From positions 32,001-96,000 of IMG/VR virus record IMGVR_UViG_3300005805_000045: 64,000 nt of DNA. One strand, given 5' to 3'. Every line of letters starts with the position of its first letter. The stretch's first letter is position 1. Shown here piece after piece: positions 491 to 32,698 of this stretch. The position numbers and the translations under genes were made by a program. The notes under the pieces were generated by a model. It saw only the letters and a list, made by a program, of their open reading frames with translations. It was not told the DNA's origin and ran no database searches. The DNA is from a virus.

Positions 491-521
491 AGGTTTGTAC
501 TAATCTATTTTCTTCTTCTTG

Positions 522-1862: not shown

Positions 1863-1895
1863 TTGTGTATTCTCCTTCTAAGTATCTTTATAGTT

Positions 1896-1903
1896 TATTT
1901 ATA
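1896..1903 (-). promoter_or_regulatory. late promoter of gp23
   Basis: TATTTATA on + strand; AAGGAG SD downstream on the minus strand. Confidence 0.75.
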
Positions 1904-1909
1904 TTATTC

Positions 1910-3610: not shown

Positions 3611-3640
3611 TGTTGAAAAACTCCTTTTATATGGTTATTC

Positions 3641-3647
3641 TATTTAT
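3641..3647 (-). promoter_or_regulatory. late promoter of gp22
   Basis: TATTTAT on + strand in the gp21-gp22 gap. Confidence 0.6.
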
Positions 3648-3653
3648 GTTTCT

Positions 3654-16312: not shown

Positions 16313-16369
16313 ATACTGGTGCTCCTCATTAGCATTAGAGTGGATAGAGACTGCAATCTCGTGATCCAC
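16313..16369 (-). promoter_or_regulatory. structured 5' leader (two hairpins) of HNH gene
   Basis: GTGGAT/ATCCAC stem with inner GAGAT/GTCTC stem; second hairpin TGCT/AGCA overlapping the SD. Confidence 0.55.
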
Positions 16370-17261: not shown

Positions 17262-18038
17262 CTAAACTCCTATATTTTTGACTGTGCCCCTAAACCATTC
17301 ATCTCCGGGACATTCTTTACTTCGTTTATTTATCACACCATTGTTCCACCAAAACGATCCCTTTATATACTTTGCATTATTTGGCGGACGTCCTTTCATT
17401 GTAGCACTTGTTTTAGCATTCATTTGCTTTTTCAATTCAGGATCATGCTGTTTGCCATAAAAAGGATTCTTTTCACCACTAAGAGCATCACTAACTTTTT
17501 TTCTATGTTCATCTGATAAAGGACCCAAGATTTTTCCTTTATTGCTTTCAGATATCTTTCTTTTTGTTTCTTCTGTTTTTTTCTTGCCAGTATTAGATAA
17601 CGATCTCTTTGCGATTTGTTCTAGTGTTTGTGGAGATAGTTTTTTGCGTCCCTCTAAATATTTTTTTTGATATTCTGGATCTTGATGAAGTTTCTTAGAT
17701 GCTTCAGATAGTTTTTCACGAACGTTTTTGTTAGATTGATCATCAATGTGCCAATGGCCAAAATGTTTTTTGCTCAAATTATAATATTTAATGCCCAACT
17801 CGTTATCGGCAATTAATTGAAGCCATTTATGCTCTTGTTCCAACAAAACTTCTTTATCAATATTTTTCTGAATAATACGTCGTTTGAAATTTTCTGGTCT
17901 ACGCCTATATGCATCACGCATTCTTCTAGACGAACAGATGTATCCATCATTTATAGTTCCATAGTGACAGCCGAGATAATACATCTTACGCTTGCTGTCA
18001 TACCAAATATAGATAAATCCTGTCTTTTCTTGGCACAT
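17262..18038 (-). mobile_element. free-standing GIY-YIG (Seg-like) homing endonuclease with NUMOD3 repeats
   Basis: GFIYIWYD...MYYLGCH..DGYICSS, YYNL; KKTEETKRKISES, GEKNPFYGKQH. Confidence 0.85.
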
Positions 18039-18092: not shown

Positions 18093-18836
18093 CTAGCCCA
18101 TAATCATCATTGGGGGTTCTTCATGGGAACTCCGAATCAATTGTTCTAATTCTTGAATCTCTTGAATAGCTTCGTTATAGATTTGCTGTCCGTTCATGGT
18201 AATGCCACCAGGTAGTTGCATTCCACTAAATTTCTTCATGTTATTGCCCCACTGCTTTTTGATATAAGCAGTTGCTAGTTTTTTGAGCAGTCTGTCGTTA
18301 TAGACTTTATTATATGTGTCAGGATCAAGAATGATGAATCCTTCGATAACAACATATTCCAATGCGTCAATCTTTGTGTTCCAGTCCCAATCGATATAGA
18401 GTTTGTTTGAATGTCTATTGAATCTAATTGGAGTCTCGCCGGAGAATAGCATATCCAGTGTTCTGATATGTTGCTGGGTTAGTACATAGTTGACATAAGA
18501 AGTAGAAGTAAAGTCATAAAGCTCATGAAGTCTGAGCTGGTAACGCAGGTCGAACATATTGACTGATGCGTTTGTAGAACCTATCGGAAATATTCGTGTG
18601 ATACCAATAATGTTATCAGGAATTGTGATATACTTGTTTGCTATGTCTTGTTGTGTTATTTGATGGCTGATATACCATCTTTCAACGCCATCAACATGGA
18701 AATCTCTATAATACTGAAAGGCTAGATCAACGGCATCTTCCACTTGCTCATCATCAACGTTTATGTCAAGGACTGGTGCACCTAACTGACGTAGGCACCA
18801 ATCTTTTAGTTGTTCTCTTGTGGCTGGTGATGACAT
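18093..18836 (-). CDS. gp13: neck protein
   Basis: CLRQLGAPVLDINVDDEQVED, KKQWGNNMKKFSGMQLPGGITMNG. Confidence 0.96.
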   Translation of the reverse strand: MSSPATREQLKDWCLRQLGAPVLDINVDDEQVEDAVDLAFQYYRDFHVDGVERWYISHQITQQDIANKYITIPDNIIGITRIFPIGSTNASVNMFDLRYQLRLHELYDFTSTSYVNYVLTQQHIRTLDMLFSGETPIRFNRHSNKLYIDWDWNTKIDALEYVVIEGFIILDPDTYNKVYNDRLLKKLATAYIKKQWGNNMKKFSGMQLPGGITMNGQQIYNEAIQEIQELEQLIRSSHEEPPMMIMG

Positions 18837-18860: not shown

Positions 18861-20039
18861 TTATTTATTATTTATGTTGTTTCGCAACTCATCTATTTTT
18901 TGTTTCCACTTATCTGACATTTTTACGAGTTCCTCATCTAAATCCAGTGGATCGTTTTCAAGTGACAGAATATTAAACAAGTGATTCAATTTCAATGTCT
19001 TATATTGAATGGAATCCTTAGTAATGAACCCATACTCTTTTTCAAAATTGTAAATAAATTCAATGCGTTCGTCCAATGGTGCTGCAAATGGTGACGTATA
19101 CTTTGGTCCGATTATTGGTAGTATGTTGTAATTAGTGACACCCTCGCAAAATCGACCGTTTATCTCTTCGACTTTCTTGATATCTTCGATTAGATTTTTA
19201 TACGACCATCTATTTAAGGTATTTGTGTACCCAAGTTCTACCTTGTTCTTACGACCCTTCATGAATTTTTCCAAGTTTTGAATAGTCTTGTCCCAGTTTC
19301 CTCCACGAGTCCAATTGTACATTTTCCCGGACGAATCCAGACTTATCCTTAATGAAAGATTCTTTAGGTTGTGAAGTATGGTTAACATCTCATCAGAAAG
19401 CTCTTGGAAGTTGCTTAAAAACTCGACATTGACATCAAGCTCTTGTTCTACAATGTGAAGAAGCATTCTCTTTACTTCATTTTGTATTAGAGGCTCGCCT
19501 CCCTTAATTTGAAGTATCTTGAGCTGGGGAAGAAGATCAAAAATCTTCTTCATGTTTTGTTCAGTCGTCCAATGCTTATATTTGACTGGTTTACGGTTGA
19601 ATTTGGTCTTGGCGTTCTGTTTGTCGAACATGAACCATTTTGAACTACATTCACTCTTACACATCAGACATTGTTGATTGCAAAGATTGTTAAAGCAAAC
19701 GTCGAGGTGTTCGATCTTACAGTCGTCTATTTTGAAGTTAGTCGAGATGCCATTCTTTCCGTACTTTCTAGGTAACATATTACGAAGAGAGTTCACAGAT
19801 GAGTTCTCTCTTCTTGTACAGGCAATACAAACCTCGTTCTCTTCGACCTTCATATTCCTGTACTTGATGAAATAATCAGTGTTAAAAAAATCCTGTAGAT
19901 TTTCTATATCATCAATGTGTGGTGGAGTAAGCCCCAGAACTTGTTCCTTGGATATACCACACAGATGTATATAACCCTCGGGCGTGATATGAATACCAGA
20001 CCACATATGCAAACATAAATGTTTCAAATTTTCATTCAT
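18861..20039 (-). CDS. radical SAM enzyme with N-terminal Twitch/SPASM-like Cys cluster
   Basis: CNQQCLMC, GGEPL; N-terminal CLHMW...LCG...CIAC; start 20039 gives TGATG coupling. Confidence 0.88.
   Translation of the reverse strand: MNENLKHLCLHMWSGIHITPEGYIHLCGISKEQVLGLTPPHIDDIENLQDFFNTDYFIKYRNMKVEENEVCIACTRRENSSVNSLRNMLPRKYGKNGISTNFKIDDCKIEHLDVCFNNLCNQQCLMCKSECSSKWFMFDKQNAKTKFNRKPVKYKHWTTEQNMKKIFDLLPQLKILQIKGGEPLIQNEVKRMLLHIVEQELDVNVEFLSNFQELSDEMLTILHNLKNLSLRISLDSSGKMYNWTRGGNWDKTIQNLEKFMKGRKNKVELGYTNTLNRWSYKNLIEDIKKVEEINGRFCEGVTNYNILPIIGPKYTSPFAAPLDERIEFIYNFEKEYGFITKDSIQYKTLKLNHLFNILSLENDPLDLDEELVKMSDKWKQKIDELRNNINNK
18862..18875 (-). promoter_or_regulatory. tandem late promoter motifs upstream of gp13
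   Basis: TATTTAT twice (18862-18868, 18869-18875) on + strand. Confidence 0.5.
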
Positions 20040-20524
20040 CACAGGGATAGCCTCATATAGCAATTATTATGCGTCGTTTTATTCTTGTCTGGGAGAACAT
20101 CATTGAATTGTTCTGTAACTTGTTCGAACCCACACTTGGAATGTACACGCATTGAATTTGGTCCAGCCATAACCCACATGAAACTCTCTGGTCTGGTTTG
20201 ACGGCATTCGTCTATGACGTGTCTTAGCAATTTCTCTGATATTTTCTGACCACGGAATTTTTTATAAACGAATATACCACGAGAACGAATGGTGTTGTCT
20301 ATAAGATGATAAGAGATGCACCCTGCTGGTTCGTTCTTGTGATAGTAAACATAGAACTTGGGTTTTGACAACGACAGGTCATAGACGTTCATATCGTTGC
20401 CGCCAAAATACTCCTTACCATCATAGAATTTCATGGAGCTAACAAGCTTTACGTCATAGTCTCCCCACATCTCAGGATCAGACCACAAAGATTTTACTTC
20501 AGCGAAGGTCGCTTCAAGTATCAT
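20039..20524 (-). CDS. GNAT-family acetyltransferase
   Basis: RSRGIFVYKKFRGQKISEKLL (motif A), HSKCGF; ATGA coupling at 20521-20524. Confidence 0.8.
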   Translation of the reverse strand: MILEATFAEVKSLWSDPEMWGDYDVKLVSSMKFYDGKEYFGGNDMNVYDLSLSKPKFYVYYHKNEPAGCISYHLIDNTIRSRGIFVYKKFRGQKISEKLLRHVIDECRQTRPESFMWVMAGPNSMRVHSKCGFEQVTEQFNDVLPDKNKTTHNNCYMRLSL

Positions 20525-21576
20525 ATATTGTCCCAAATAGTTTCTATACACTTGTAAATATCTTTAACTTCTGTGTAGTGATTTAGGGGCAATGAAAGAA
20601 TTGTGTCACAAACAATCTGACTGTTCTGTAGAGTATCTTTTCTATGGGGCAGAGATTTATACATAGGATTTTCTGATATTGGATTTTTATAGTGAACAGT
20701 AGCACCTAATAATTTTTGTATTTTGTCTCTGGTTTGTCTATCCTGAAATCTAACCACATACTTGTGGTAGTTATGATCGACATGTTCAATGTTCTGAATT
20801 GAAATAGGAAAATCTTTGAATGCGTTGTTATAAATTTCTGCGTTTCTTTGACGAATGTATTGCCATTTTTTCATGCTCTTCAATCTATGATCTATAACAC
20901 GAGCGTTCAGTAGAAGCATCTTAGAGTTATAGCCTAAAATTTCTCCATTTCCGTGCACTCGTAATTTTTTGACGGTATTATATAGTGATTCGTCATCGGT
21001 TAGAAAAGCGCCACCCCCAGAAATACCCGCCACGTTTTTATTGGCGTTAAAACTCAAAGCACTGGCAATTCCCAGTGTGCCCGCTTTGATACTTTGGTAA
21101 CTAACCCCTATGGCCTGACAAGCATCTTCAACAAAGTGAATCTTCTTCTCCTTACAGAAAGCTATGATCTGTCTTGTATCGGACATACTACCAAAGAGAT
21201 GGGGATATACGATTGCTTTGGTTTTGTCTGAATACATTCTTTTAATACTATCAAAATTCATATGATATGTTTCAAGATCAATGTCGCAAAAGACAGGAGT
21301 AGCGCCCACCATAGAAACACATGATGCCGTAGAAAGCCAAGAGAAATTTGGAACTAAAACTTCATCTCCTGCCTTGATTCCTAATGCAAGCATAGAAAAG
21401 AATAGCGCATCTGTTCCACTTGCTACAGAAATTGCATACTTCCTTCCCGTTATTCCACATAATGATTTTTCAAGAAAGCTAATATCAGTTTCTTGTTTTT
21501 CTGACAGAGTAGATTCAAATAGTTCAAAGTACTCTCTCTTGTTTTCAATAAATTCTCTTTCCCATCCAGTTTTCAT
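20521..21576 (-). CDS. DegT/DnrJ/EryC1/StrS PLP-dependent sugar aminotransferase
   Basis: VASGTDAL, GDEVLVP, GATPVFCDID, VEDACQA, SFNANKN (catalytic Lys), LSLP. Confidence 0.93.
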   Translation of the reverse strand: MKTGWEREFIENKREYFELFESTLSEKQETDISFLEKSLCGITGRKYAISVASGTDALFFSMLALGIKAGDEVLVPNFSWLSTASCVSMVGATPVFCDIDLETYHMNFDSIKRMYSDKTKAIVYPHLFGSMSDTRQIIAFCKEKKIHFVEDACQAIGVSYQSIKAGTLGIASALSFNANKNVAGISGGGAFLTDDESLYNTVKKLRVHGNGEILGYNSKMLLLNARVIDHRLKSMKKWQYIRQRNAEIYNNAFKDFPISIQNIEHVDHNYHKYVVRFQDRQTRDKIQKLLGATVHYKNPISENPMYKSLPHRKDTLQNSQIVCDTILSLPLNHYTEVKDIYKCIETIWDNI

Positions 21577-22667
21577 TATACGTATTCCCAAATTGAATTA
21601 TATTCTATATCTTTGAATAAGATTCTTTTAAAATGTTCATCTTTCTTTTCATTAGGATCTACTTTGACTTCCTTTGTAACTCCACCAGCAAGTCTAAAAT
21701 GAATATCAAACAAGTATGCTTTATTCGGGCTGTAGGGAACAAATGTTATATTCAATACGCTTAGTTTCATGTTCGATGCTTCAATTATTTTATACATTAA
21801 CGACATAAATGTTTCAAAATTTGAATTACCCAAAACCTCTCTGGCACGAATGTAATTATCTTCACGTTTATCTATTACGTATTGTTTGGAATATATGTAA
21901 GCTGGAAAGAAAATTCCAACATCTTTTGGGAGCAATGTTTTTAGAACTACTATAAAATGGATTTTATTGTTGGCTACAATTAAACTTATACTATAACATT
22001 CTCGACTAGAAACACACTCTTGAATAATGTGTCTTCCTCGTATGCCAGCAAGACTTTTCCCAAATTTCATTTCCTTTCCATTTTTCTGAATATTCAAAAA
22101 TTCATCCAAAGCATCATATTTTTGAATAACATCAATAAGATGTGCGGAATTTTTATATTTCAGATAGTCAAACTCAGAATATTTTTCTTCAGTCATATGC
22201 AATCGTGTAGATCCGTCAGCACCATTTGTGGGTTTTACAAATATTTCACTATCAAACTCTCTTATAATTTCTTCAACAGAAGTAGGAACAATTGTATGAG
22301 GATGAGGGATATTGTGTTTTCGACAGAAGTAAAAGAATTTTTCCTTATCCATTAAATCGTTTATTTTACAATTCATTTTTGGAATCATTTTTACATTACT
22401 ATCTAGAGTATCTAGCATAGGATATAAATTGTCGCATTGAGACAACACATAGTCAATTTCATACCGATTAACTAATTTATGAATTGCTTCTTTATAATCT
22501 CTTATAGTTGGCTTGCTATATTCTATGTGTCGAAGCGATTTATGAGACTCTCTTGGAAAATCCATCAAGTTATATACAGTGTGTCCGTATCGCTCTGCTT
22601 CTGCCACAGTTAAATTCATGAGATGTGAATTTTTACTTAAATTCACAAACAACAATTTTTTACCCAT
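21576..22667 (-). CDS. ATP-grasp fold ligase
   Basis: MDKEKFFYFCRKHNIPHP, IFVKPTNG, IIQECV, FDIHFRLAGG. Confidence 0.72.
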   Translation of the reverse strand: MGKKLLFVNLSKNSHLMNLTVAEAERYGHTVYNLMDFPRESHKSLRHIEYSKPTIRDYKEAIHKLVNRYEIDYVLSQCDNLYPMLDTLDSNVKMIPKMNCKINDLMDKEKFFYFCRKHNIPHPHTIVPTSVEEIIREFDSEIFVKPTNGADGSTRLHMTEEKYSEFDYLKYKNSAHLIDVIQKYDALDEFLNIQKNGKEMKFGKSLAGIRGRHIIQECVSSRECYSISLIVANNKIHFIVVLKTLLPKDVGIFFPAYIYSKQYVIDKREDNYIRAREVLGNSNFETFMSLMYKIIEASNMKLSVLNITFVPYSPNKAYLFDIHFRLAGGVTKEVKVDPNEKKDEHFKRILFKDIEYNSIWEYV

Positions 22668-22678
22668 AATAATTTCCT

Positions 22679-23872
22679 TTATTGTATAATATACTTAGAG
22701 ATTAACTCATTAAATTTTGATTCATCCTTGGCTTTCACCACACAAATCCCACAATCACAATGACTGTTTGGGCAGAGCATGGTAGGAGGCTTTCCTTCTG
22801 TTCTGACTTTTTCTTCCAACCACAACAAATATTCATCTGAAGTAGAAAGGTTACATATTGGACCTCTGTTTTTGGTAAAACTTTTGACGTGTTTTAACAT
22901 GGGTCCAATTTTAACTTCTGGGGTATCTTCGGTTTTTGCCATACATGTTTGATGATGATAAACAACATCCTTGTCTTCTTCGATATGTAAGAAGAACCAA
23001 TTGACCATACAATTCCAGCCTTCAAAGTTAGACTGTTCTATAAACATCGTGTCAGTCTGTTTACCTGTCGCACCAACGGTCATGCATCTTCCACCACAAC
23101 ACATACGCCCCATCTTACGAGCTAATCCATCGTCAGATACGGCTTTGATCTCTGAACCACCAACCTTTTTATTTTTGTCCGACCAGTGATTGCGAAGATA
23201 TTCCTGTTGTTCTTTGGTGTAGACGTGAGATGTGCGTCTCATTTGTCCGTCAACATCCTCAAACCATTCAGTTCTAAATTTGCCGTCGTCGCCTATGATT
23301 CTTGGGATGTAGTTTATTCCATTTGGTTTTAAGAAATTTTCGATTAGGTCCACACATTCATCCCAGTAATCCATGTGCATCATAACATTAACCTTGAGTT
23401 TATTTTGGTTTTTGATGTTCTGATGTGTCCAAAGTAGGTTGTGACGAATGAGTTCCTTTTGTTTGGGCGTTCCTTCACAGTGATAAGACACTGTGATTGA
23501 ATCTAAGTGCTTCAGTAACTCTTTACCCTTACGTTCATTCCAAGTACCATTAGTGGTTAGATTCAACTTCATATAAGGATACGTTTCACGCATGTAAGGC
23601 AGAAGTTGATAGAAGGCTGGATTGACTGCTGGTTCTCCTCCCGTGAACGAGATGACAATACGCCAATCTTTTTGATGAAACATGGAATATATAGCATAGT
23701 AATCGTCAATAAACTTGGCTGTCTGTTTATATTTCTCAAAGGAATTCATAGGGGCTGTTGTTGAATGCATCCATCCTGTGCAATATGAACAATCAAAGTT
23801 ACAACGTCTGCCCAAATCCCACACAACCATTTTGGTTGGTAGTTTTTCGTCACTGTAGATGTAATCTATCAT
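22679..23872 (-). CDS. radical SAM enzyme with C-terminal Cys-rich domain
   Basis: WDLGRRCNFDCSYC, FTGGEP, TTNG; C-terminal CCGGRC and CPNSHCDCG. Confidence 0.92.
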   Translation of the reverse strand: MIDYIYSDEKLPTKMVVWDLGRRCNFDCSYCTGWMHSTTAPMNSFEKYKQTAKFIDDYYAIYSMFHQKDWRIVISFTGGEPAVNPAFYQLLPYMRETYPYMKLNLTTNGTWNERKGKELLKHLDSITVSYHCEGTPKQKELIRHNLLWTHQNIKNQNKLKVNVMMHMDYWDECVDLIENFLKPNGINYIPRIIGDDGKFRTEWFEDVDGQMRRTSHVYTKEQQEYLRNHWSDKNKKVGGSEIKAVSDDGLARKMGRMCCGGRCMTVGATGKQTDTMFIEQSNFEGWNCMVNWFFLHIEEDKDVVYHHQTCMAKTEDTPEVKIGPMLKHVKSFTKNRGPICNLSTSDEYLLWLEEKVRTEGKPPTMLCPNSHCDCGICVVKAKDESKFNELISKYIIQ

Positions 23873-24885
23873 TTTATATGATTGCCTTTTGGTAAATTAG
23901 TTGTGATACTGATATTATTAGCTATTTCAACTTCAAAAAAATAATCTTTATTCAAGGGTTTCAGTTTATCTTCTTTTGAAAATCTATCAGATGGTTTAAG
24001 ATAAAATTTCACACCCCAATCTTTTGCTAGTTGTCTTGCTTCAGTTATTTGATGCTCGTTAAATCGCATTGGTATAAATTGCCAAAAACATTCTATGCCA
24101 TTCTTTGCTGCTGTCTTCATATTATTAGTGATTTCGTTCCAATCTTGGTTTATTCTATGTATTTTGGAAGTGTCTTCTAAACCATCTATTCCCCAAAAAA
24201 CAATTACATGTATGCCAGATTGTCGCAATTCTTTCCATAAGTTTTGAGTCTTATTCCACCATTTTTCAGTTTTACCAGTTGCTGCTATACTTACACGATA
24301 GTGTTTCACTGTATGTTGATTTAGTAATATTAACATCTCATGATAATGTTTATAAAAAATAGGATCACTAAGAGAACCACAGTCTACAATACTATCCCAA
24401 AATTTATATTGAAATACGTCTTTTAATACATCCAAAGAAATATCAATATTATTTAAACGATTTTGATTTACTCTGGCACAATAACCACATTTTAACGAAC
24501 ATCTATTAGATGTTTCTATCTGAATGGTATTGAAATCTTTTGTATGAAATTTTTTATCTTCGTATACAAAATTTGGATCATACTTTATCATAGGAGAAGT
24601 TCTAGGTGATTGTTTAGAACCACAAAATTTCCAACATTTTTTTAATTTAGTAGTATGTAGATTGTCGATTAAATTATTCCACTCGACACTCTCTACTATT
24701 TCAGCATATCTCTTGTTATATAATGAAAAATTATTATTGATAAATGGATTGTCATCATAAGTTTCATCTGTTAATTGAATTTTATTCATCAAAGAAGTAT
24801 AATTTAACTGACAACAAGGAAACAAAAACCCTTCATTAGATATAAATGGTGACATTGTTCCACTGTAGCATTTTGGATATATCAT
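23869..24885 (-). CDS. radical SAM enzyme with N-terminal SPASM-like segment
   Basis: ETSNRCSLKCGYC, WGIDGLEDT, WQFIPMRFNEHQI; N-terminal FPCC...CWKFC. Confidence 0.85.
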   Translation of the reverse strand: MIYPKCYSGTMSPFISNEGFLFPCCQLNYTSLMNKIQLTDETYDDNPFINNNFSLYNKRYAEIVESVEWNNLIDNLHTTKLKKCWKFCGSKQSPRTSPMIKYDPNFVYEDKKFHTKDFNTIQIETSNRCSLKCGYCARVNQNRLNNIDISLDVLKDVFQYKFWDSIVDCGSLSDPIFYKHYHEMLILLNQHTVKHYRVSIAATGKTEKWWNKTQNLWKELRQSGIHVIVFWGIDGLEDTSKIHRINQDWNEITNNMKTAAKNGIECFWQFIPMRFNEHQITEARQLAKDWGVKFYLKPSDRFSKEDKLKPLNKDYFFEVEIANNISITTNLPKGNHIK

Positions 24886-25550
24886 AATTTCCCTATAACC
24901 ATAAACCTTTTATAGTTTGTGGATTTGATTGTTGTGTCTTGCCATTCAACAATATCCCTCTCACCAGAGTACAAAACTTTGTTGATTTGATGAACGTTGA
25001 TTAGATGTTCTATACTATCTACACAATTAATATGTTCAGGTATATGTCTCATATTATTGGATTGAATGACGACGACTGGATCTTCATTATAGAAAAGATT
25101 TAAATATACGTTTTTACCTTTCATTTCACAAAAAGTTTCTTTCATGTGTTCTGATGAGCAATTTATAACCAAATCTGGTTCATGTCTTTTGGGACTTCTA
25201 TCCCAATAATCTTCATTTAATATCCATACATCGTTTTTGTTTTTATTGTATATTTCTCTATATTGAATAGCCACCCTACAGGCATTTTTATCAATATCAT
25301 ACATGAATATTTTTTTAATGTTGAAAGTTTCGTACAACATACCAATCAATGGCCACCCAAACCATCCACCAACAATTTCTACATTCAATGGAGCTTCGCT
25401 ATCTATGATTTCTTTTAGTTCTGAGATCATCCAAATTTTAGAGGATATTTGGTTTGGAGATATGCTATCGTAAAAATTTACTCCTGGCAAAGTTTTACTA
25501 ATCCACTCGTTCACTTTAGAATATTTTGAAATATCTATGTAATCAATCAT
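24882..25550 (-). CDS. class I SAM-dependent methyltransferase-like protein
   Basis: VEIVGGWFG (motif I), YDID, DLVINCSSEHM, QSNN. Confidence 0.7.
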   Translation of the reverse strand: MIDYIDISKYSKVNEWISKTLPGVNFYDSISPNQISSKIWMISELKEIIDSEAPLNVEIVGGWFGWPLIGMLYETFNIKKIFMYDIDKNACRVAIQYREIYNKNKNDVWILNEDYWDRSPKRHEPDLVINCSSEHMKETFCEMKGKNVYLNLFYNEDPVVVIQSNNMRHIPEHINCVDSIEHLINVHQINKVLYSGERDIVEWQDTTIKSTNYKRFMVIGKL

Positions 25551-26283
25551 CGTAGCTTTCCCATAATTCTGTAGCCCAATTGGGGGTATTGTCTAATTCA
25601 AAATAACGTCTTCCTTGTTTAATCAAATGAGATGTGTTGAAAAGGCAACAAGATGCATTTGAATTGTACTTGTATTGATTTGGACCCTGTTCATTGTAAT
25701 TATAGAAGTGTATATTTCCATCTTTCCAAAAATCTATTTTATTACCTTTAAGATGATGTTCGTAGAACAGATATTTATCGCAAGATTGATATTCTTTATC
25801 CAACATCTCTCTGTTTTCTATATAATACTCCCACAGAAATTTTGCTGCATTTCCTGACCATCGGACAAAAGACGAGTTTACAAAACATGCCGTTTTTTGA
25901 GGAACCAAAATTTTCCAATGCCATTCTGGAGTCCAATGTGTCCATATAAAAGTAGGTTTACTGATTTGTCTTGTACACAAATCTGTTATATCGTTATGTA
26001 TAAGTATATCAAGATCAAGAATTAGGTTGTTTTCATTATTAATTTTGTGCATCAATTCAATTTTTTCAAGTGTAAATAAAGGAGTATGCTCAAAGACATT
26101 GTAATCTATTATCTTTACGTCTTCATAAATATTGCAATAATCGTCTGTTATACAATGAAAAATAAAATCTGTTTGGCAATATTTTTTAAGAGAGTTGAAT
26201 AGTCGATTAACGTATTCAGATCCGTATTTTTGTCCCCATTTAAAGGTATAAATGTTCAATGTACCATGATTTAGTTTTGACAT
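25543..26283 (-). CDS. GT-A glycosyltransferase (KWG-x-KY family)
   Basis: FKWGQKYGSEYVNRL, CITDD, LDLD (DxD), NSSFVRW. Confidence 0.8.
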   Translation of the reverse strand: MSKLNHGTLNIYTFKWGQKYGSEYVNRLFNSLKKYCQTDFIFHCITDDYCNIYEDVKIIDYNVFEHTPLFTLEKIELMHKINNENNLILDLDILIHNDITDLCTRQISKPTFIWTHWTPEWHWKILVPQKTACFVNSSFVRWSGNAAKFLWEYYIENREMLDKEYQSCDKYLFYEHHLKGNKIDFWKDGNIHFYNYNEQGPNQYKYNSNASCCLFNTSHLIKQGRRYFELDNTPNWATELWESYDD

Positions 26284-27155
26284 TTTGTGATCCTATAACG
26301 AAAGATAATGAATACGATATACCATTTGTCTTAGCAGAGAATCCAACAGCATTAAAATGGCTAAAAATTCTATATGAAGATATTTATATCAATAGGTGTA
26401 CTTGGAATAACAATAGATATGTTGGATTTGATATAAATCCACTATCCAAGAAAAAAATGGCAGAAGAATTAAATTATTTAATTTCTATTTGTGAGAAAGA
26501 AAGGCCTGGGCATTTTAGATTCACTGCGCATGAAAACATGTCTCAAGATGATTTTAATAAAATGCACATATGGTTTGAGATATACAGAGGTGAAATTAAC
26601 AATCCACATGATTTCTTTTCACGAGGAACAAAACAATTCAAATATGCAATTGAAAGATTTAATCAAGTAATACACATGTGGGAAAAAATAGAAAAATACC
26701 AACAGAATAAAGAACTTTGTTTTATAACATATGATATATTTGATGGAAAAAATGAAGACTTACAAGATGAAGATTTCTTAAATTTCAAATTTAAAAGATA
26801 TGACAACACAATATACTTGTCATATAATATGAGAGGAAAAAATTTACTGGATGTATGGATTGATGAAGACATACATATTGGCGATAATAACATTAGACCC
26901 TATAGATATCTAAGTTCAAATTTTGTTTTACGTTCTAAAGGCTGGTCGAAAAAAGAAACTGTTGAAAAACAAAAAGACTTTACTGAGTGGTTTGAAAGAA
27001 ACTCAAATTATCTAAATTCATTAGGATTTTACAAAGATGAGCCAAAATGCACCATAGGTTGGTTACCTTTGGCTCATTCTACAATAAAAGAAAACATAAA
27101 ATTTATAATAGAACCTAGACAATTTTTGAAACAAATAAAAATTTTTGAGGACTGA
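26259..27155 (+). CDS. hypothetical protein, possible metal-binding enzyme
   Basis: 298-aa ORF; paired helical motifs NKMHIWFE and NQVIHMWE. Confidence 0.55.
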   Translation: MYHDLVLTFCDPITKDNEYDIPFVLAENPTALKWLKILYEDIYINRCTWNNNRYVGFDINPLSKKKMAEELNYLISICEKERPGHFRFTAHENMSQDDFNKMHIWFEIYRGEINNPHDFFSRGTKQFKYAIERFNQVIHMWEKIEKYQQNKELCFITYDIFDGKNEDLQDEDFLNFKFKRYDNTIYLSYNMRGKNLLDVWIDEDIHIGDNNIRPYRYLSSNFVLRSKGWSKKETVEKQKDFTEWFERNSNYLNSLGFYKDEPKCTIGWLPLAHSTIKENIKFIIEPRQFLKQIKIFED

Positions 27156-27854
27156 ATGATCATCGTAAATCAATATGGAAAAGTAGAGTTTGATTTGGAC
27201 TTCAATGAATATAAAAAAATAGGAATTGGATTTTCAGGTGGTTGTGATTCCACTTTATTATTTTATTTATTGCTAAAATTGTTTGAAGAATCTAAACCAA
27301 ATGCTAAAATAATACCAATAACCGGAATAACAATTAATAAAGGTAAATGGAAACTACTTAGATCACAGCAAATTTTGGATGAACTTCTAATTCAATTTCC
27401 TAGTTGTGAAAAATACGTAGAAGACAGACAAATAAACTTCAATTGGTCACAAGAAGAATATTCAGAGTTTACTGAAAAGTTATTTGACGAAAATATAGTA
27501 GATATTCGCATATTTGGATTGACTAAAAATCCTCCATATGATGTTATGAAAGAACACAATTTGTTGTTCGAAAGAGAAAAATCAAGAGACAATATTGATA
27601 ATATTCTATTGAAATCAGGTTCAAGAAAAAAAGGAGGCCCAACTTATGATCCACTTCGTAATATTGATAAAAGGTGGATAGCACAATGCTACAAAGATTT
27701 TAAATTGATGGATAATATATATCCCCTCACATCTTCATGTGAGAGGCTGCGTGAAACCTATGATATGATCGATAATGAAGATCCCTGTAAACACTGTTGG
27801 TGGTGTAAAGAAAAGAAAATGGCCTTTGGAACATACGATGGAGGAATATCTTGA
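27156..27854 (+). CDS. PP-loop (QueC-like) adenine nucleotide alpha-hydrolase
   Basis: IGFSGGCDS PP-loop; TSSCE...PCKHCWWCKEK metal-binding cluster. Confidence 0.82.
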   Translation: MIIVNQYGKVEFDLDFNEYKKIGIGFSGGCDSTLLFYLLLKLFEESKPNAKIIPITGITINKGKWKLLRSQQILDELLIQFPSCEKYVEDRQINFNWSQEEYSEFTEKLFDENIVDIRIFGLTKNPPYDVMKEHNLLFEREKSRDNIDNILLKSGSRKKGGPTYDPLRNIDKRWIAQCYKDFKLMDNIYPLTSSCERLRETYDMIDNEDPCKHCWWCKEKKMAFGTYDGGIS

Positions 27855-28564
27855 TAACTGTGACATGTGTAAAATGGGGCAACAAGTACTCGGCAGAATA
27901 CGTTAATCGTCTTGAAGTGATGGTGCGTAAATATCTGAATGCGGAACATCGATTTGTCTGTCTAACTGAAGACCCAACTGACGTAAAATGTGAAACGATT
28001 GCTCTACCAAAAGACAATGATCTGGAGGGTTGGTGGAACAAGATGTATTTGTTCTCTTCTGACTATCTCAAGGACACATGCCTGTATTTTGATCTTGATA
28101 CCGTCATTCAGCAGCCAATTGATTGCCTCCTGGACTATCAGGACAAACTCACTGGCGTATACACGTATTGGAACGACTTCTACACTGACGGAGACTATCC
28201 CTTTGCCATGCTCAAATATAAGACTCCATTTAATTCGTCAGTGATGGTATGGAAAGCTGAAGAATATTATTGGGTCTATGACAAGTTCAACGATGACAGA
28301 GACTGGCATGTCATTAAGTATTATGGTGACGACAAGTTTCTGGGCAATGAGATTGCTGATAAACGAACCTTTCCCAAGGGCTGGATTTACTCCAGACTAT
28401 ACGGAAGATACGAGCACGATTTCCCTACCGAAATACTTCAAATTTACTCAGGGTACGAAGAAGGTCTGTTTCACTATCCTGATCACAAAATCTGTCTATT
28501 CAACGGTCCTACTGTCGATCTTCACTATAAGGGGTTTGAGCACTATTGGAACACTGCTTCGTAA
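27851..28564 (+). CDS. GT-A glycosyltransferase (KWG-x-KY family)
   Basis: CVKWGNKYSAEYVNRL, GWWNKMYLF, YFDLD, FNSSVMVW; TTG start with GGAGG. Confidence 0.85.
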   Translation: MITVTCVKWGNKYSAEYVNRLEVMVRKYLNAEHRFVCLTEDPTDVKCETIALPKDNDLEGWWNKMYLFSSDYLKDTCLYFDLDTVIQQPIDCLLDYQDKLTGVYTYWNDFYTDGDYPFAMLKYKTPFNSSVMVWKAEEYYWVYDKFNDDRDWHVIKYYGDDKFLGNEIADKRTFPKGWIYSRLYGRYEHDFPTEILQIYSGYEEGLFHYPDHKICLFNGPTVDLHYKGFEHYWNTAS

Positions 28565-29139
28565 TCGGAATGTTGGACAACGATATTTCTTGCAAGTATC
28601 TTGAACTAACACTTCCTGAAATAGAAAGAGTCACTTGTATCAAACCAACAATTTGGAATGCTGTTACTCCCCAAACTCTGCCTTCTGGACCTTTACAATT
28701 TCTAAAAACTAAACCAACAATAGGTACACATAGATCACGCAATCTTACAGACACAGAGAAGTCTGTTTGGTATTCACATTTCACTTTATGGAATCATGTG
28801 TCTATGAACTGTGCTTCTGCTTGGATATTTGAACATGATATCGATCTTTCACGTATCATTGTTTTTCCTGAATATACAAGTGACATAGTTACAATCAAAG
28901 AAACAGGAAGTGTTGACTGCTATTATTTAACAAAAAGGGGAGCAACATCATTGTGTCATTTAGCTGTTAGTTCTCCTATAACATTTCAAGTGGACGGGTT
29001 TCTTAGCTCGTTAATAACAACTAGAACCACAATTAAAAACATGCACTTTTGTCCAAAATTACCAATTGAGCAGTTAACAATGTTTGGCACTACTATAGAT
29101 CATCAACCATCATCTGCCACATATCACGATCAGGAATGA
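28546..29139 (+). CDS. GT25-like glycosyltransferase
   Basis: WNAVTP, TEKSVWYSHFTLW, IFEHD, YYLTKRGA, VDGFL. Confidence 0.68.
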   Translation: MEHCFVIGMLDNDISCKYLELTLPEIERVTCIKPTIWNAVTPQTLPSGPLQFLKTKPTIGTHRSRNLTDTEKSVWYSHFTLWNHVSMNCASAWIFEHDIDLSRIIVFPEYTSDIVTIKETGSVDCYYLTKRGATSLCHLAVSSPITFQVDGFLSSLITTRTTIKNMHFCPKLPIEQLTMFGTTIDHQPSSATYHDQE

Positions 29140-29701
29140 CATAACCAAAGGTCAGTCGTTCGCTATGTGATCTCGCACAATGCCAAACAATCTTATCTGG
29201 CTCTTCTTTCTTACCAAAATAACCAACCTTAGCTTGCCACCCAGGAACATCATACTGTGTAACGATTTTCTGAGCCACTGGATCTTTGTATCTAAAGTAT
29301 CCCTTGCCTTCCTTATTATATGACAGAAGAATATTGTAGCCAGGACAGTTCCAGTTGGTGTGCCATCCCATGTAGCCGCCTTCGGGATAGTACATCTTGA
29401 CAGCGCAGAACTTGGCACCAAAGAACGCATTCAGATCACTGTCAAACTTTACAATCTTTTCTCTGAAAGATTCTGGTGTACTTTCTACCATTGTCAAGTC
29501 TTGACCATATGTGCTTTCAGGGAAACCGATATGTTTTTCTTTATCGATTGTGTTGAGATAGTTTTCTGATGTATAATAATCGTTAGTGTCTGGATCACCT
29601 TTTAGTTTGATCAATTTTCGATCAATCGAAAAGAACCATTCGGCAAAAGGATTGATGATCTCTAGGAGAGAAGGATTAAGTTGACGATCAATTAGTTGCA
29701 T
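29093..29701 (-). CDS. 2OG-Fe(II) dioxygenase-like (DSBH) protein
   Basis: YYPEGGYMGWHTN, VWHCA, RLTFGY; start at ATG 29701 directly after upstream stop. Confidence 0.7.
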   Translation of the reverse strand: MQLIDRQLNPSLLEIINPFAEWFFSIDRKLIKLKGDPDTNDYYTSENYLNTIDKEKHIGFPESTYGQDLTMVESTPESFREKIVKFDSDLNAFFGAKFCAVKMYYPEGGYMGWHTNWNCPGYNILLSYNKEGKGYFRYKDPVAQKIVTQYDVPGWQAKVGYFGKKEEPDKIVWHCARSHSERLTFGYVIPDRDMWQMMVDDL

Positions 29702-29703
29702 GG

Positions 29704-30375
29704 TTATCTCACTGTATGATGATAAATGATGACAGGCTTTGACACCTCTGTCTTTATATAGCCGTTGACAAAGTTCCAACGAGCATCTTCATCAAAATAC
29801 TTTCGTCGTATGACATAATCTGTTTTGTTTTGTAGCCACCAATATGCCCATTGATCCCATTGTCTAAGTTCTTCTGGATAGAGATTATTGTCCCATTGCC
29901 ATTCTCCTGACTCTTGCTTCTGATAAAGATTCCACCATTGTCTCATAAATTCTAGAGTACGATCATTGGACCGATACATGAAAAAACCACAATGATCAAT
30001 CAATTCTCCACCAGGAAATTTGGTAATCTTGGCGTTGTACGGTCTGATTTTGGTAATGAGAAGATCAGTTTCATCATCAATTTGATCAAAAATTGTTTTG
30101 ATGTCCTCGTGCATAATTTCCATGTCTGCATCAAGATACACTGTCAGATCATAGGGTGTCTGGCTGAGTGCCCAGAGTTTGGCTCTCTTGTTTCGTGGTG
30201 CACCACCTACGACGGTATCAAACGTGTGATATAGATGATCTTTTACCCAAGCGGTCTCCGTGAACAACGTGACATTGGCTTCAGGCCAATAATCTTTGAG
30301 AGTTTCGCAGCAATATTTGGCAGACAGCAAAAACTTCTCATTGAGAGAAGCGACAATAACGAATCCTTTTTTCAC
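29704..30375 (-). CDS. GT-A glycosyltransferase (GT8-like)
   Basis: AKLWALSQTPYDLTVYLDAD, WDQW, RWNF, IIYHH. Confidence 0.75.
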   Translation of the reverse strand: MKKGFVIVASLNEKFLLSAKYCCETLKDYWPEANVTLFTETAWVKDHLYHTFDTVVGGAPRNKRAKLWALSQTPYDLTVYLDADMEIMHEDIKTIFDQIDDETDLLITKIRPYNAKITKFPGGELIDHCGFFMYRSNDRTLEFMRQWWNLYQKQESGEWQWDNNLYPEELRQWDQWAYWWLQNKTDYVIRRKYFDEDARWNFVNGYIKTEVSKPVIIYHHTVR

Positions 30376-30830
30376 TCTGTTTGCTCTGCTTTTGCCTTCT
30401 TGGTTTTCTTGGGAGTTTGAAGTGATTCTGTTACCAATAACAAAGAGGTGTAAGCTGTCACTTCCATAATCGTTTTGGCTCGTCTGATCTTTGATTTAAG
30501 CTCAGTGTTCTTTGAGTTTTTGATTTCTTCGATTGAGAATGCCTCAAGCTTGGCATTAAAGATTGCTTCATTCTTCATCGTCTCTTGACGTTCTTTGTGT
30601 TTTTGTTCTTCAAACTTCTTTTGTTCACGCATACCTTGCAAAAAGTCTTCGGTGTTTTTATCAAGGACTTCACGACTGAAAAGTTCCATAATCTCTTTCC
30701 AGTCAGGATTGCCTTCTTCGGTATCCTGAACAACAGCATTTAGTATCTTGCCGTCTTCATATCTGAATGTACACCAGACTTTAGTTTTAGAATCGTTTGC
30801 CCATCTAGCGTTCGCAATTTCTCGTTTCAT
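30372..30830 (-). CDS. hypothetical coiled-coil protein (possible chaperone of repeat protein)
   Basis: Coupled between repeat protein and GT; FNAKLEAFSIEEIKNS..KSKIRRAK. Confidence 0.6.
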   Translation of the reverse strand: MKREIANARWANDSKTKVWCTFRYEDGKILNAVVQDTEEGNPDWKEIMELFSREVLDKNTEDFLQGMREQKKFEEQKHKERQETMKNEAIFNAKLEAFSIEEIKNSKNTELKSKIRRAKTIMEVTAYTSLLLVTESLQTPKKTKKAKAEQTE

Positions 30831-30831
30831 T

Positions 30832-32124
30832 TTAAGCTGTCCTTATCCATAAACTAACTGTTGACACTGTGTCTTTTGTTGCAAGAACTGTTTGACCTGT
30901 ATAACTACCTGTATAGGTTCCTGAGTATGTAATACCAGCATATGTACCTGAGAAATTTTGAGAATATGTTCCAGAATAGTATCCAGTATAATAACCAGTA
31001 TAGGTTCCAGAATAATATCCATTCAAGAAACCAGCAAAAAATCTTGCATATGCTCCTGTGTAATTTCCTGCATAGGTTCCTGCATATGCACCAGTGAAGT
31101 TCTGAGAATATGTGCCTGTATAATTGAGACCCACATAATTTCCAGAATATGATGGACCAGAATATGCACCAGTGAAAAATCCTGTGTAGAATCCAGTATA
31201 ATTGCCAACATAATATCCATTCAAGAAACCAGCAAAGAATCTTGCATATCCACCAGCATAAACTCCAGAAAATGCTCGTGAATATGATCCTGAATATGAT
31301 GCTGCATAAAAACCAGTATAGGCAGGTACATAAGCACCAGTGTAGTTTCCAGAGTATGATTGATTACCCAGTGAATGTCGTGTATCAGAGAAAGCTTGTC
31401 CTGCTAGTACCCACGTTCCGCCTGTTCCTGGAGCAGCAGTTTGCAGTGCATATTTGCCGATGCCAGTTGTTCTGATATATTTTCTTAGCAGCGGTGCCAT
31501 ATTCTTGATCTGAGTATCAGACATTTCAATCAAACCTGATTTATCTGTCTTATACGTTAATGACCGAATTGTTGTAGGTGTTGTTGTGTTTGCTGTTTTT
31601 TGCCACAAATATGTATTGGAACTTCCAACGAATCCGATGTTAGCTTTGTCTGTAATTGTTGCTCTTGAAATCCATGTACCATCAGAGGGGGATGTGGGTT
31701 GCAGCTTATACATCCCAATACCACCGTTGACTAGAGTATTGGCTGTTACTGATATGATATAATTTTCTAGGTCAGTGTTTGCTTGAGGATTGAGACCCGT
31801 GCTAGAATCGTATTGCATAGGTCTGGAATTTGCATTTACATCTTCAGAATATGTTTGTAAGTTTTGAAAGAACTCGTAGGTTTCAGAGACGACTTCAGTT
31901 CCAACAGGATGAGCACCAACAGCATGATTTCTGTATGTATCGGTAAATGTACCAATCAGAGTCATACCAGAATTAGAACCAGGATTCACATAAAGCATAC
32001 CAGTCAATTCATCTACGACAAACTGCTCTAAGATTCTATGTGAGATATACGCAATCTCAGTGTTCGATATTTCTTTCAGAGAAACAGGAGTTGTTAAACT
32101 GTCAGCCTTGAGCGGTCTTGCCAT
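30832..32124 (-). CDS. putative virion fibre protein with C-terminal [YF]-x-G-x tetrapeptide repeat
   Basis: About 155 aa such as YSGNYTGAY...YTGFYTGFFTGAYSG...YSGTYTGSYTG; N-terminal part has two related domains. Confidence 0.7.
   Translation of the reverse strand: MARPLKADSLTTPVSLKEISNTEIAYISHRILEQFVVDELTGMLYVNPGSNSGMTLIGTFTDTYRNHAVGAHPVGTEVVSETYEFFQNLQTYSEDVNANSRPMQYDSSTGLNPQANTDLENYIISVTANTLVNGGIGMYKLQPTSPSDGTWISRATITDKANIGFVGSSNTYLWQKTANTTTPTTIRSLTYKTDKSGLIEMSDTQIKNMAPLLRKYIRTTGIGKYALQTAAPGTGGTWVLAGQAFSDTRHSLGNQSYSGNYTGAYVPAYTGFYAASYSGSYSRAFSGVYAGGYARFFAGFLNGYYVGNYTGFYTGFFTGAYSGPSYSGNYVGLNYTGTYSQNFTGAYAGTYAGNYTGAYARFFAGFLNGYYSGTYTGYYTGYYSGTYSQNFSGTYAGITYSGTYTGSYTGQTVLATKDTVSTVSLWIRTA
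31012..31249. repeat. 40-bp near-exact direct repeat (31012-31051, 31210-31249) in the Y-x-G region
   Basis: ataatatccattcaagaaaccagcaaa[a/g]aatcttgcatat encodes YARFFAGFLNGYY twice, 198 nt apart. Confidence 0.85.
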
Positions 32125-32140
32125 ATTCTAAAACCAATCT

Positions 32141-32593
32141 TTATGGATAAATCTGATTATTATTTACATCGAAAATTTTCAGCATGGGAAACCAATAGTT
32201 TCTCGTTCCATTTGTCATAAGGACTTGATTTGCTGATCCTGTTGTTCCATTATTTGCATGAGTCTGAATTGAATTTACGTTGATGTTTCCTGTAAATTTC
32301 AGGTTTCCGTTGAACGTAATATCAGTGGTATTTGCTAGTGCTGCATTAGCCTTAGCAAAAGCCGCAGTGGTGTTGGCGTCAACAAGATATGTGTAATAGT
32401 TGGCTGAATTGGCTTTAGCAAAGGAAGCACTTGTGTTGGCATCAACAAGATAGGTGTAGTAATTAGCCGAGTTTGCTTTACCAAATGCGTTTGCTGTCAA
32501 TCCATCATTTTGATCTAGAGAAACGATAACCTGATTGGTTCTTGTTCTCCAAGTATCAAATGTATCTGTAAGTGCTACGTTTGCTAATGGCAT
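32141..32593 (-). CDS. short fibre/collar-type structural protein
   Basis: LTDTFDTWRTRTN N-terminus; ANSANYYTYLVDANT repeats; GSANQVLMTNG. Confidence 0.65.
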   Translation of the reverse strand: MPLANVALTDTFDTWRTRTNQVIVSLDQNDGLTANAFGKANSANYYTYLVDANTSASFAKANSANYYTYLVDANTTAAFAKANAALANTTDITFNGNLKFTGNINVNSIQTHANNGTTGSANQVLMTNGTRNYWFPMLKIFDVNNNQIYP

Positions 32594-32623: not shown

Positions 32624-32630
32624 TATTTAT
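32624..32630 (-). promoter_or_regulatory. late promoter for 150-aa fibre, repeat protein and first modification genes
   Basis: TATTTAT on + strand, AAAGGA SD downstream. Confidence 0.55.
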
Positions 32631-32698
32631 CTAACATAAATTAAAACATTATCAGAGAGTCTATGCACGGTTGTTTCTGATGATGTTAGTCTATACAT
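32627..32698 (-). pseudogene. truncated copy of the fibre-chaperone gene at 34168-34602
   Basis: [23 protein letters not shown] versus [22 protein letters not shown]; similarity stops after about 17 codons. Confidence 0.8.

Follow-up and report, generated by a model that had tools for sequence, protein, structure and literature searches.

In pelagimyophages and cyanomyophages, a host recognition cluster (HRC) of tail fibres, GT8 glycosyltransferases, lipopolysaccharide (LPS)-type genes and radical SAM cassettes was described as non-syntenic and was interpreted as altering the host O-chain to guard against co-infection (Zaragoza-Solas, Rodriguez-Valera & Lopez-Perez 2020, PMC7029224). The same host-envelope interpretation recurs in later papers. 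Here we describe an island of this type (18861-32124) in a 64-kb stretch of viral DNA, hereafter the window, which comprises bases 32001-96000 of IMG/VR record IMGVR_UViG_3300005805_000045, a complete virus record (163,885 bp, direct terminal repeats). The island type is already published as the HRC: position (from the VrlC baseplate gene to the neck genes) and gene mix are the same, and the HRC of Pelagibacter phage Mosig is an island of this kind of about 18 kb with a DegT aminotransferase 56% identical to ours. The apparent novelty is a core of four strictly linked genes, predicted to encode a repeat protein, a small protein (p152), a glycosyltransferase (GT) of the GT-A fold and an oxygenase-fold protein (p202). 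Whereas the HRC is non-syntenic and host-directed according to that paper, this core is strictly syntenic, which points to a protein substrate. The explanation that we favour, at about even odds and judging from gene linkage, is that the core belongs to a glycosylation system dedicated to the fibre-like repeat protein, a candidate virion protein, and not to the host surface.

Glycosylation of virion proteins by phage GTs encoded next to structural genes was shown in mycobacteriophages (Freeman et al. 2023, Cell Host Microbe, PMC10527164, as cited in PMC12801897). The position of GTs beside structural genes is the common feature, seen here as adjacency to the repeat protein in 58/58 and 53/55 loci. 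Unlike the mycobacteriophage systems, the present one would have a separate repeat protein as its substrate, lies in the baseplate/fibre region of a myovirus, includes oxygenase-fold and methyltransferase-fold partners and a sugar-tailoring cassette, and is a prediction from the genes. The mycobacteriophage substrates are reportedly siphovirus capsid and tail-tube subunits, and the enzyme families are said to differ from those found here.

Other described systems resemble parts of the locus. Hydroxyproline-linked glycosylation (Dictyostelium Skp1, with PhyA followed by GTs; plant extensins; vCPH of PBCV-1) likewise combines a prolyl-hydroxylase (PHD) or prolyl-4-hydroxylase (P4H) fold, a GT77/GT8-like GT-A enzyme and a hydroxyl-rich repeat protein. 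However, the repeat in our protein is nearly proline-free and p202 carries HxN in place of HxD, so the likeness is one of mode and not of family membership. Glycogenin, a self-glucosylating GT8 enzyme with a Tyr O-linked product, was the best but weak structure match to the GT-A family profile and shares with it a DxD motif and a distal His; the proposed substrate of GT-A is rich in Tyr. Nevertheless, the E-value was only 0.05, the window GT-A stays below the PF01501 threshold, and Tyr content in the repeat-protein family varies from 2 to 19%; Tyr-O-glycosylation of the repeat is therefore only a lead. In Mimivirus and chloroviruses, clusters with a DegT-type aminotransferase, an N-acetyltransferase, a dehydratase and GTs supply the glycans of virus surface proteins. 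These are giant viruses of eukaryotes, unlike the present phage with its bacterial host and three radical SAM proteins.

Conservation of a four-gene core across phages

The repeat-protein search of IMG/VR gave 64 loci, onto which all window proteins were mapped; the counts below refer to the 58 loci with at least 1.5 kb, or the 51 with at least 3 kb, downstream of the repeat protein. Homologues of GT-A and p202 directly followed the repeat protein in 58/58 loci (median offsets 558 and 1238 bp), and p152 stood between the repeat protein and GT-A in 54/58. KWG-type GTs were present in 47 of the 51 loci with one to four copies each, and the methyltransferase-fold gene in 41. The remaining partners were rare among the 51: radical SAM 3 in ten, the PP-loop gene in six, DegT and GNAT in two each, radical SAM 1 and radical SAM 2 in one each, and ATP-grasp in none. 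The co-occurrence with the repeat protein that the earlier note expected of the island enzymes was thus found for GT-A, the oxygenase-fold protein, p152, the KWG GTs and the methyltransferase-fold gene, and failed for the radical SAM, DegT, GNAT, ATP-grasp and PP-loop genes.

The reverse search, with a p202-family profile against IMG/VR, matched at least 580 stretches. Among the best 80, which were analysed, 55 had at least 4 kb upstream, and in 53 of these the p202 gene was preceded, in order, by the genes for the repeat protein, p152 and GT-A. An alignment-based scan was needed here, since single-protein scans of IMG/VR with radical SAM 1 and with p202 gave none or two relatives. The order of the four core genes was kept in about 110 loci, and the accessory cassette was variable. 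Rearrangements were also seen: fibre genes part the core from VrlC in the window, and elsewhere KWG genes are lost or the p202 gene is inverted, the core genes still being adjacent (L145-L147).

A search of 50,697 phage records in GenBank matched both the repeat protein and GT-A to Phage C48C1 only. This was also the only full match of p202; a partial one (39% coverage), which stands alone, was found in the jumbo phage LR756511 (L149). Phage C48C1 encodes a repeat protein of 3347 aa followed by the same three genes, adjacent to one another. Its GenBank record gives no host and a literature search on this phage found nothing relevant. The core is absent from Mosig, HTVC008M and the cultured cyanophages. 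Taken as it stands, the linkage supports a functional link of the core, KWG and methyltransferase-fold genes to the repeat protein and would fit glycosylation of a structural protein.

The repeat protein as candidate acceptor

The repeat protein (P0001) has two tandem domains of about 110 aa with the common motif GIGxYxLxxxAPxGGTW...YLWQKTA. The Tyr/Gly/Thr/Ser repeat for which it was first singled out is an array of 29 [YF]-x-G-x tetrads with a strict period of four ([YF]-[TSA]-G-x). It sits in domain 2, just before the last strand (...TVSTVSLWIRTA), and this strand forms the conserved C-terminus ...TVSTVKLWxRTA. Across the family (3433 tetrads), Thr occupies the second position of the tetrad in 43% of cases, Ser in 20% and Ala in 17%, Thr or Ser together making up 63%. 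Family members range from about 260 to more than 3800 aa, the variation being accounted for by expansion of the tetrad array, and are 29-54% identical to the window homologue. Apart from Tyr, they contain 12-18% Thr, 5-17% Ser, 1-5% Pro and 0-2 Cys residues; in the P0001 repeat only 2 of 157 residues are proline. The variation in length is illustrated by L041, L067, L046, L018 and Phage C48C1 (L002/L150), and the giant forms are among the largest genes of those phages.

In the AlphaFold2 (AF2) model of P0001, residues 1-260 and 410-430 had a predicted local distance difference test score (pLDDT) above 90, and the array had 30-48. The fold search gave beta-prism/MABP matches that did not exceed Z 6.4, within the noise range of the tool and too weak for a fold assignment. 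The model had no match in BFVD, and the search of the Atlas returned unnamed viral clusters only. Judged from its position only, the repeat protein may be a structural component of the virion. The gene heading its unit, that of P0002 (fib150), lies downstream of the tail-fibre gene (Table 1), and its product had no family match.

Partner genes of the core

No PDB or Pfam match and no relatives of known function were found for p152, which may be a chaperone or adaptor. In GT-A, D82-x-D84 and H219 were invariant in 35 sequences, which fits the DxD and distal His metal ligands of GT8. The window GT-A itself had no PF01501 match; PF01501 was reached by 4 of the 35 relatives (best 3.4e-6) and PF03407 by 7. 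The GT8-like label given earlier thus stands in so far as this is a predicted GT-A protein with an invariant DxD, its similarity to GT8/GT77 being weak.

The start of p202 was revised to 29701 by comparison with the L005 homologue, giving a protein of 202 aa. Its AF2 model (pLDDT 95) is a double-stranded beta-helix, and all its VIA matches with Z of at least 8 were 2-oxoglutarate (2OG) oxygenases, with protein prolyl hydroxylases leading. They included PiuC (9qn0; Z 10.1, root-mean-square deviation 3.6 over 150 residues), Trichoplax PHD (6f0w; 9.9), Dictyostelium PHD (6t8m; 9.5), OGFOD1 (9.2), Pseudomonas putida P4H (8.9) and the PBCV-1 collagen P4H vCPH (5c5t; 8.9). Foldseek gave a match at 1.5e-4. 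The sequence profile found no relative in the PDB, and the fold search alone identified the fold. R182, invariant and eight residues after H174, matches the basic position that binds the C5-carboxylate of 2OG. Members of the family are 31-74% identical to the window protein. The assignment of this protein as a 2OG-Fe oxygenase in the earlier note was borne out for the fold; that it hydroxylates is made uncertain by HxN in place of HxD, as discussed below.

A p202 paralogue was found directly after gp23 in another T4-like contig (L157:7752-8399). A stand-alone chromosomal homologue occurs in Halieaceae (L158:7872-8567) beside LysR, GST and peptidase genes, neighbours that are uninformative. The other matches to p202 in bacterial genome contigs were set aside as mostly mis-binned T4-like phage contigs. 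In GTDB, module-bearing T4-like contigs (L151-L157) are binned as Balneola, Bifidobacterium breve, Bdellovibrionales, Sphingobacteriales, Microbacteriaceae and Porticoccaceae. These assignments to metagenome-assembled genomes are probably mis-binning, and the names are therefore no evidence of the host.

Other glycosyltransferases and the methyltransferase-fold gene

Both KWG-type GTs recognized in the earlier note matched phrog_1962, and their neighbours in the Atlas are GT8/PF03407 clusters; a PDB sequence search with KWG GT2 gave nothing usable. The KWG GTs are less specific than the core, being present also in Mosig and in Xanthomonas and Stenotrophomonas jumbo phages. The 222-aa protein previously called a methyltransferase had no Pfam match. 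Its family profile, by contrast, matched class-I methyltransferase/spermidine-synthase folds in the PDB (spermidine synthases 6e-5, methyltransferase 7wm5 5.5e-4), and its motif I reads VEIVGGWFG. The first gene of the plus arm, unk298, had no family or PDB match; its homologues are unnamed metagenomic proteins only, and a homologue in L163 is 72% identical. At the other end of this arm, the 3' end of the GT25 gene runs 47 nt into that of the convergent p202 gene.

The accessory cassette beside gp13

Hidden Markov model (HMM) matches supported the identification of three radical SAM proteins, GNAT, DegT and GT25, and gave weaker support for the ATP-grasp and PP-loop proteins, in the latter of which the motif SGGCDS is present. 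Radical SAM 1 is the last gene before gp13. DegT is nearest to the PseC, LegC, ArnB and DesI types, all below equivalog cut-offs. For the PP-loop protein a PDB sequence search gave nothing usable, and homologues were found in L161 and L163; we infer that it is possibly an amidotransferase-type sugar tailoring enzyme.

The block of radical SAM 2, ATP-grasp, DegT, GNAT, radical SAM 1 and gp13 keeps its order in L161-L163. Identities of the shared cassette genes were 59-85% in L162/L163 and about 40-69% in L161, radical SAM 2 reaching 85% and 69%, respectively. We judge the predicted island genes to be real because both order and identity are kept in these genomes. The radical SAM, DegT, GNAT, ATP-grasp and PP-loop genes probably form, on present sequence comparisons, a lineage-specific cassette for amino-sugar tailoring, better read as a separate module anchored at gp13 with a nucleotide-sugar tailoring character.

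The island of L161 (GCA_041156885.1 contig, 169,697 bp) also contains a sulfotransferase, an adenosine phosphosulfate (APS) kinase, a carbamoyltransferase, a PhyH oxygenase and two PP-loop paralogues, a content that hints at a sulfated or carbamoylated glycan. A second sugar/modification island lies outside the window at the genome ends (G000:C1:159852-163586 and 464-4261; L003, L004). It encodes two GDP-mannose-4,6-dehydratase-like short-chain dehydrogenases/reductases (SDRs), two methyltransferases and a P4H-type 2OG-Fe(II) oxygenase (PF13640). The keto-sugar for DegT could come from the dehydratase-like enzymes. We found no sugar-1-phosphate nucleotidyltransferase.

Genome setting, gene layout and promoter motifs

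The minus strand of the window carries a T4-type structural module with major capsid protein, scaffold, protease, portal, sheath, large terminase, gp15, gp14 and gp13. The capsid protein is 67% identical to that of Pelagibacter phage Mosig, 65% to that of Methylophilales phage Melnitz and 62-64% to those of cyanomyophages. By these identities the source phage is therefore placed as a marine Kyanoviridae-like (T4-like) myophage without a close cultured relative. The island lies between the VrlC-like gene and gp13 and, as the earlier note described, between the fibre genes and gp13. It consists of the repeat protein and 15 tightly packed genes, mostly with enzyme signatures, whose junctions are of the ATGA, TAATG, TGATG or GTGA type (Table 1). 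A megablast of the island against GenBank phages gave no match. Several of the listed TTG/GTG starts are probably over-extended, the true starts being internal ATGs (p202, DegT, GNAT and radical SAM 1).

The earlier note had placed the first enzymes directly behind the repeat protein. This is true of p152, GT-A and p202, which share its transcription unit. The four genes at 26259-29139, however, have plus-strand orientation, which makes the island three transcription units and not one operon: a minus-strand unit from fib150 to p202, a plus arm converging on it, and a minus-strand unit from KWG GT1 to radical SAM 1, divergent from the plus arm.

Table 1. Positions in the window, strand and identifying evidence of the island genes, their neighbours and promoter motifs
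Feature	Position	Strand	Evidence or remark
gp13 neck gene	18093-18836	-	structural module, beside island
Radical SAM 1, N-terminal-twitch	18861-20063	-	NF033640, 164 bits vs cut-off 170; SPASM and Radical_SAM matches; probable ATG 20039
GNAT acetyltransferase	20039-20551	-	HMM match; probable ATG 20524
DegT/PseC/LegC-like sugar aminotransferase	20521-21591	-	PF01041, 2.7e-76; probable ATG 21576
ATP-grasp-like ligase	21576-22667	-	weak: PF02655 2.9e-4, sub-cut-off; NCBIfam carbamoyl-phosphate-synthase-like 1e-7
Radical SAM 2	22679-23872	-	PF04055, 7.5e-11
Radical SAM 3	23869-24885	-	PF04055, 3.9e-7
Class-I SAM methyltransferase-fold protein, 222 aa, spermidine-synthase-like	24882-25550	-	family profile vs PDB
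KWG-type GT-A glycosyltransferase 1 (KWG GT1)	25543-26283	-	phrog_1962, 1.1e-5
unk298, 298 aa, first plus-arm gene	26259-27155	+	5' overlap with KWG GT1, 25 nt
Perfect TATAAATA late-promoter motif	26381-26388	-	98 nt 5' of the 8-gene minus arm (KWG GT1 to radical SAM 1)
PP-loop ATPase	27156-27854	+	SGGCDS motif; weak HMM matches
KWG-type GT-A glycosyltransferase 2 (KWG GT2)	27851-28564	+	phrog_1962, 1.5e-14
GT25-like glycosyltransferase, last plus-arm gene	28546-29139	+	PF01755, 30.9 bits vs cut-off 24
p202, 2OG/Fe(II)-oxygenase-fold, prolyl-hydroxylase-like	29093-29701	-	listed as a 228-aa open reading frame (ORF), p228, from TTG 29779
GT-A glycosyltransferase (GT8/GT77-like)	29704-30375	-	invariant D82-x-D84, H128, H219
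p152	30372-30830	-	small N-terminal domain and Lys/Glu-rich helical tail; conserved partner of repeat protein
Repeat protein P0001, 430 aa	30832-32124	-	proposed glycosylation substrate
P0002, 150-aa fibre-like protein (fib150)	32141-32593	-	short tandem 'ANSANYYTYLVDANT' repeats; heads unit with repeat protein
Late-promoter-like GATAAATA	32624-32631	-	7/8 bases of T4 late consensus; 30 nt 5' of ATG at 32593
Tail-fibre gene	32713-34158	-	phrog_4492, 2.9e-73
VrlC-like gene, 1986 aa	39377-45337	-	then baseplate wedge genes

A late promoter had been reported at 32624, and a motif is indeed there, as GATAAATA with one mismatch and not as TATAAATA. Perfect TATAAATA matches occur eight times in the window, all on the minus strand. 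Compared with the ORF list, most of them lie 25-200 nt 5' of a minus-strand ORF start; downstream of the match at 454, we identified no gene. Furthermore, a perfect TATAAATA stands 5' of 31 of 32 distinct p112 homologues in relatives, and the relatives therefore clearly use, as far as motifs tell, T4-type late promoters. Sigma-70 and terminator scans remained at background level. The divergent KWG GT1 (minus) and unk298 (plus) genes overlap by 25 nt at their 5' ends (26259-26283), and the promoter of each arm must therefore lie inside the first gene of the other; a plus-strand motif, CATAAATA, is found at 26124-26131, as against the minus-strand TATAAATA at 26381.

Some further features of the region were noted. 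The part at 24000-28000 is AT-rich: its GC content is 0.28-0.31, as compared with 0.36-0.40 for the flanks and the four core genes. It holds radical SAM 3, the methyltransferase-fold gene, KWG GT1, unk298 and the PP-loop gene. Its low GC suggests recent acquisition from a lower-GC phage pool. The ATP-grasp gene is likewise low in GC (0.30). Homing endonuclease genes of the HNH type and with NUMOD3 (15791-16369, 17262-18038) are inserted between gp15/gp14 and gp14/gp13, and a NUMOD3 gene has the same place in L162 and L163. A 285-aa protein at 7436-8293, in the gap from the portal gene to a 636-aa ORF, had a weak Alt-like ADP-ribosyltransferase match (phrog_802, 1.1e-7).

A proposed dedicated glycosylation system and its alternatives

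Within the hypervariable HRC of this marine T4-like phage, the island may be understood as two modules that adjoin each other. The first, Module A, would be the core, conserved across a large uncultured phage group, in which a fibre-like repeat protein is encoded with dedicated modification genes. The acceptor would be the [Y/F]-[T/S/A]-G-x array, a long excursion from a two-domain beta-rich protein. The GT8-like GT-A, co-transcribed with it, would put the first sugar on Thr/Ser or Tyr hydroxyls. Its prolyl-hydroxylase-fold partner may hydroxylate the protein or, given the HxN site, be a non-canonical or substrate-binding subunit, and p152 would serve this core system as chaperone or adaptor. 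The KWG and GT25 glycosyltransferases would then extend the glycan and the methyltransferase-fold enzyme would cap it. Module B, lineage-specific and abutting gp13, would comprise radical SAM 2, ATP-grasp, DegT, GNAT and radical SAM 1, with radical SAM 3 and the PP-loop ATPase alongside. Its product may be an unusual N-acylated amino-deoxy sugar nucleotide used by the Module A glycosyltransferases, with 4-keto-6-deoxy sugars from the two 4,6-dehydratase-like enzymes at the genome ends as precursor. The earlier note had proposed a pathway for modification of a virion protein by the island as a whole; this is retained, by linkage, for the core subset of genes, and the remaining enzymes are assigned to the separate cassette by gp13. 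What we observe is the set of genes and their order, the folds of the proteins, the linkage across phages and the promoter motifs; the substrate, the chemistry, the timing and the location in the virion are suggested from these.

Several points weigh against a dedicated glycosylation system. All support for it is gene linkage, and common descent within one phage group could partly be the cause of the core synteny. Unglycosylated beta fibres rich in Thr, Ser, Tyr and Gly are common in phage tails, and soluble glycosyltransferases of O-antigen pathways also have no membrane segments. The GT8 assignment of GT-A is weak at the sequence level. In the p202 family, H114-x-N116...H174 was invariant in 34 sequences and Asp or Glu never occurred at position 116, a departure from the HxD/E...H triad, the equivalence of the metal site being taken from strand positions in the model and not from superposition. 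Because of this invariant HxN, catalysis by p202 is uncertain, and the protein may be inactive or do something else. Expression timing is also in question. The earlier note had argued for late expression, to which the promoter motifs of the window point. However, the KWG/methyltransferase arm runs antisense to structural genes in most relatives, and in 32 distinct short intergenic regions of these no clear minus-strand late promoter was found for it; 12 of the 32 had a perfect minus-strand match at any point of the region scanned. Finally, the published interpretation of such genes is that they modify the host O-chain (PMC7029224).

This published alternative holds that the GTs and sugar-tailoring enzymes are auxiliary metabolic genes altering the host O-chain, capsule or envelope glycan, for example to block superinfection, and only reside beside the fibre genes. 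The island does sit at the site described by Zaragoza-Solas et al., from VrlC to the neck genes, with the GTs, LPS-type genes and radical SAM cassettes found there; the DegT, GNAT, PP-loop, GT25 and 4,6-dehydratase genes are classic O-antigen/capsule enzymes; and both the lineage-variable accessory cassette, which resembles flexible glycotype islands, and the low GC of part of the island (0.28-0.31 vs 0.37-0.40 in the flanks) are as this alternative would have it. Yet it leaves unexplained why some 110 independently sampled loci have GT-A, the oxygenase-fold gene and p152 beside the repeat protein, and why the repeat protein, GT-A and full-length p202 share a pattern of C48C1 only in GenBank. 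No transmembrane segment was predicted in the island proteins (no 19-residue hydropathy window above 1.58), and no flippase, polymerase, ligase, initiating phosphoglycosyl transferase or ABC exporter was found in the island gene content, although host enzymes could supply the steps of flippase, polymerase, ligase and initiating transferase. Late-promoter motifs before both minus arms would also be late for altering a cell soon to lyse. We consider modification of the host surface unlikely on this evidence, if by no means negligible.

Rather improbable, in our view, is that the enzymes modify other parts of the virion, such as the fibres p112, p486 and fib481 or the baseplate, or that the repeat protein is itself a lectin-like, glycan-binding fibre. 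Structural genes flank the enzyme genes on both sides, and the beta-prism/MABP matches of the folded domains, weak as they are, correspond to a lectin-type arrangement. However, the fibre genes beside the module change between phages whereas the repeat protein is constant, and the beta-prism match (Z 6.4) falls within the range that the tool itself states as noise.

A maturation like that of ribosomally synthesized and post-translationally modified peptides (RiPPs), in which twitch/SPASM radical SAM proteins, ATP-grasp and the oxygenase cross-link or modify the Tyr-rich repeat, is quite improbable. It could draw on the twitch/SPASM signatures and weak peptide-maturase similarity of three radical SAM proteins and on an array rich in aromatic residues at a fixed period. 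Nevertheless, the co-encoding of maturase and precursor expected of RiPPs is not seen, radical SAM genes being present in a minority of repeat-protein loci and ATP-grasp in 0/51; the radical SAM genes travel with DegT and GNAT beside gp13, a sugar-tailoring context, and Tyr falls to 2% in the repeat family. The cross-linking of a fibre that had been suggested earlier finds no support in these counts. Decoration of phage DNA bases by the GTs, aminotransferase, PP-loop and radical SAM enzymes is very improbable. In its favour are the use of similar enzyme classes in thymidine and 7-deazaguanine hypermodification pathways and weak QueC-like matches of the PP-loop protein. However, the complete 163,885-bp genome has no PF00303 (thymidylate-synthase/dCMP-hydroxymethylase) or PF01702 (TGT/DpdA) match and the island lies in the late structural module, far from replication genes.

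Implications for marine T4-like phages

Returning to dedicated glycosylation of the repeat protein, we put forward its wider form tentatively, with a leaning towards doubt. A large uncultured group of ocean T4-like phages would make a mucin- or extensin-like glycoprotein fibre, in which a GT8-like enzyme, together with an HxN prolyl-hydroxylase-fold partner and a small chaperone, puts O-linked sugars on Thr/Ser or Tyr of an array that ranges from about 60 to more than 3500 residues. Lineage-specific GTs and tailoring cassettes would diversify the glycan, and the 'LPS genes' of these myophages would largely be virion-glycan genes. For about 20 years the GT and 'LPS' genes of marine T4-like phages have been taken, as an untested assumption, to modify the host surface, and the strict linkage of the core offers a concrete, testable alternative. 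If it is true, phage virion glycosylation, so far shown in mycobacteriophages, would extend to abundant ocean myoviruses, a new acceptor motif and a non-canonical hydroxylase-fold partner would be defined, and the counting of auxiliary metabolic genes in viral metagenomes would change. If it fails, the published host-glycotype reading would be strengthened. A glycan coat on baseplate fibres could affect host range, protease resistance, and losses to grazing and adsorption.

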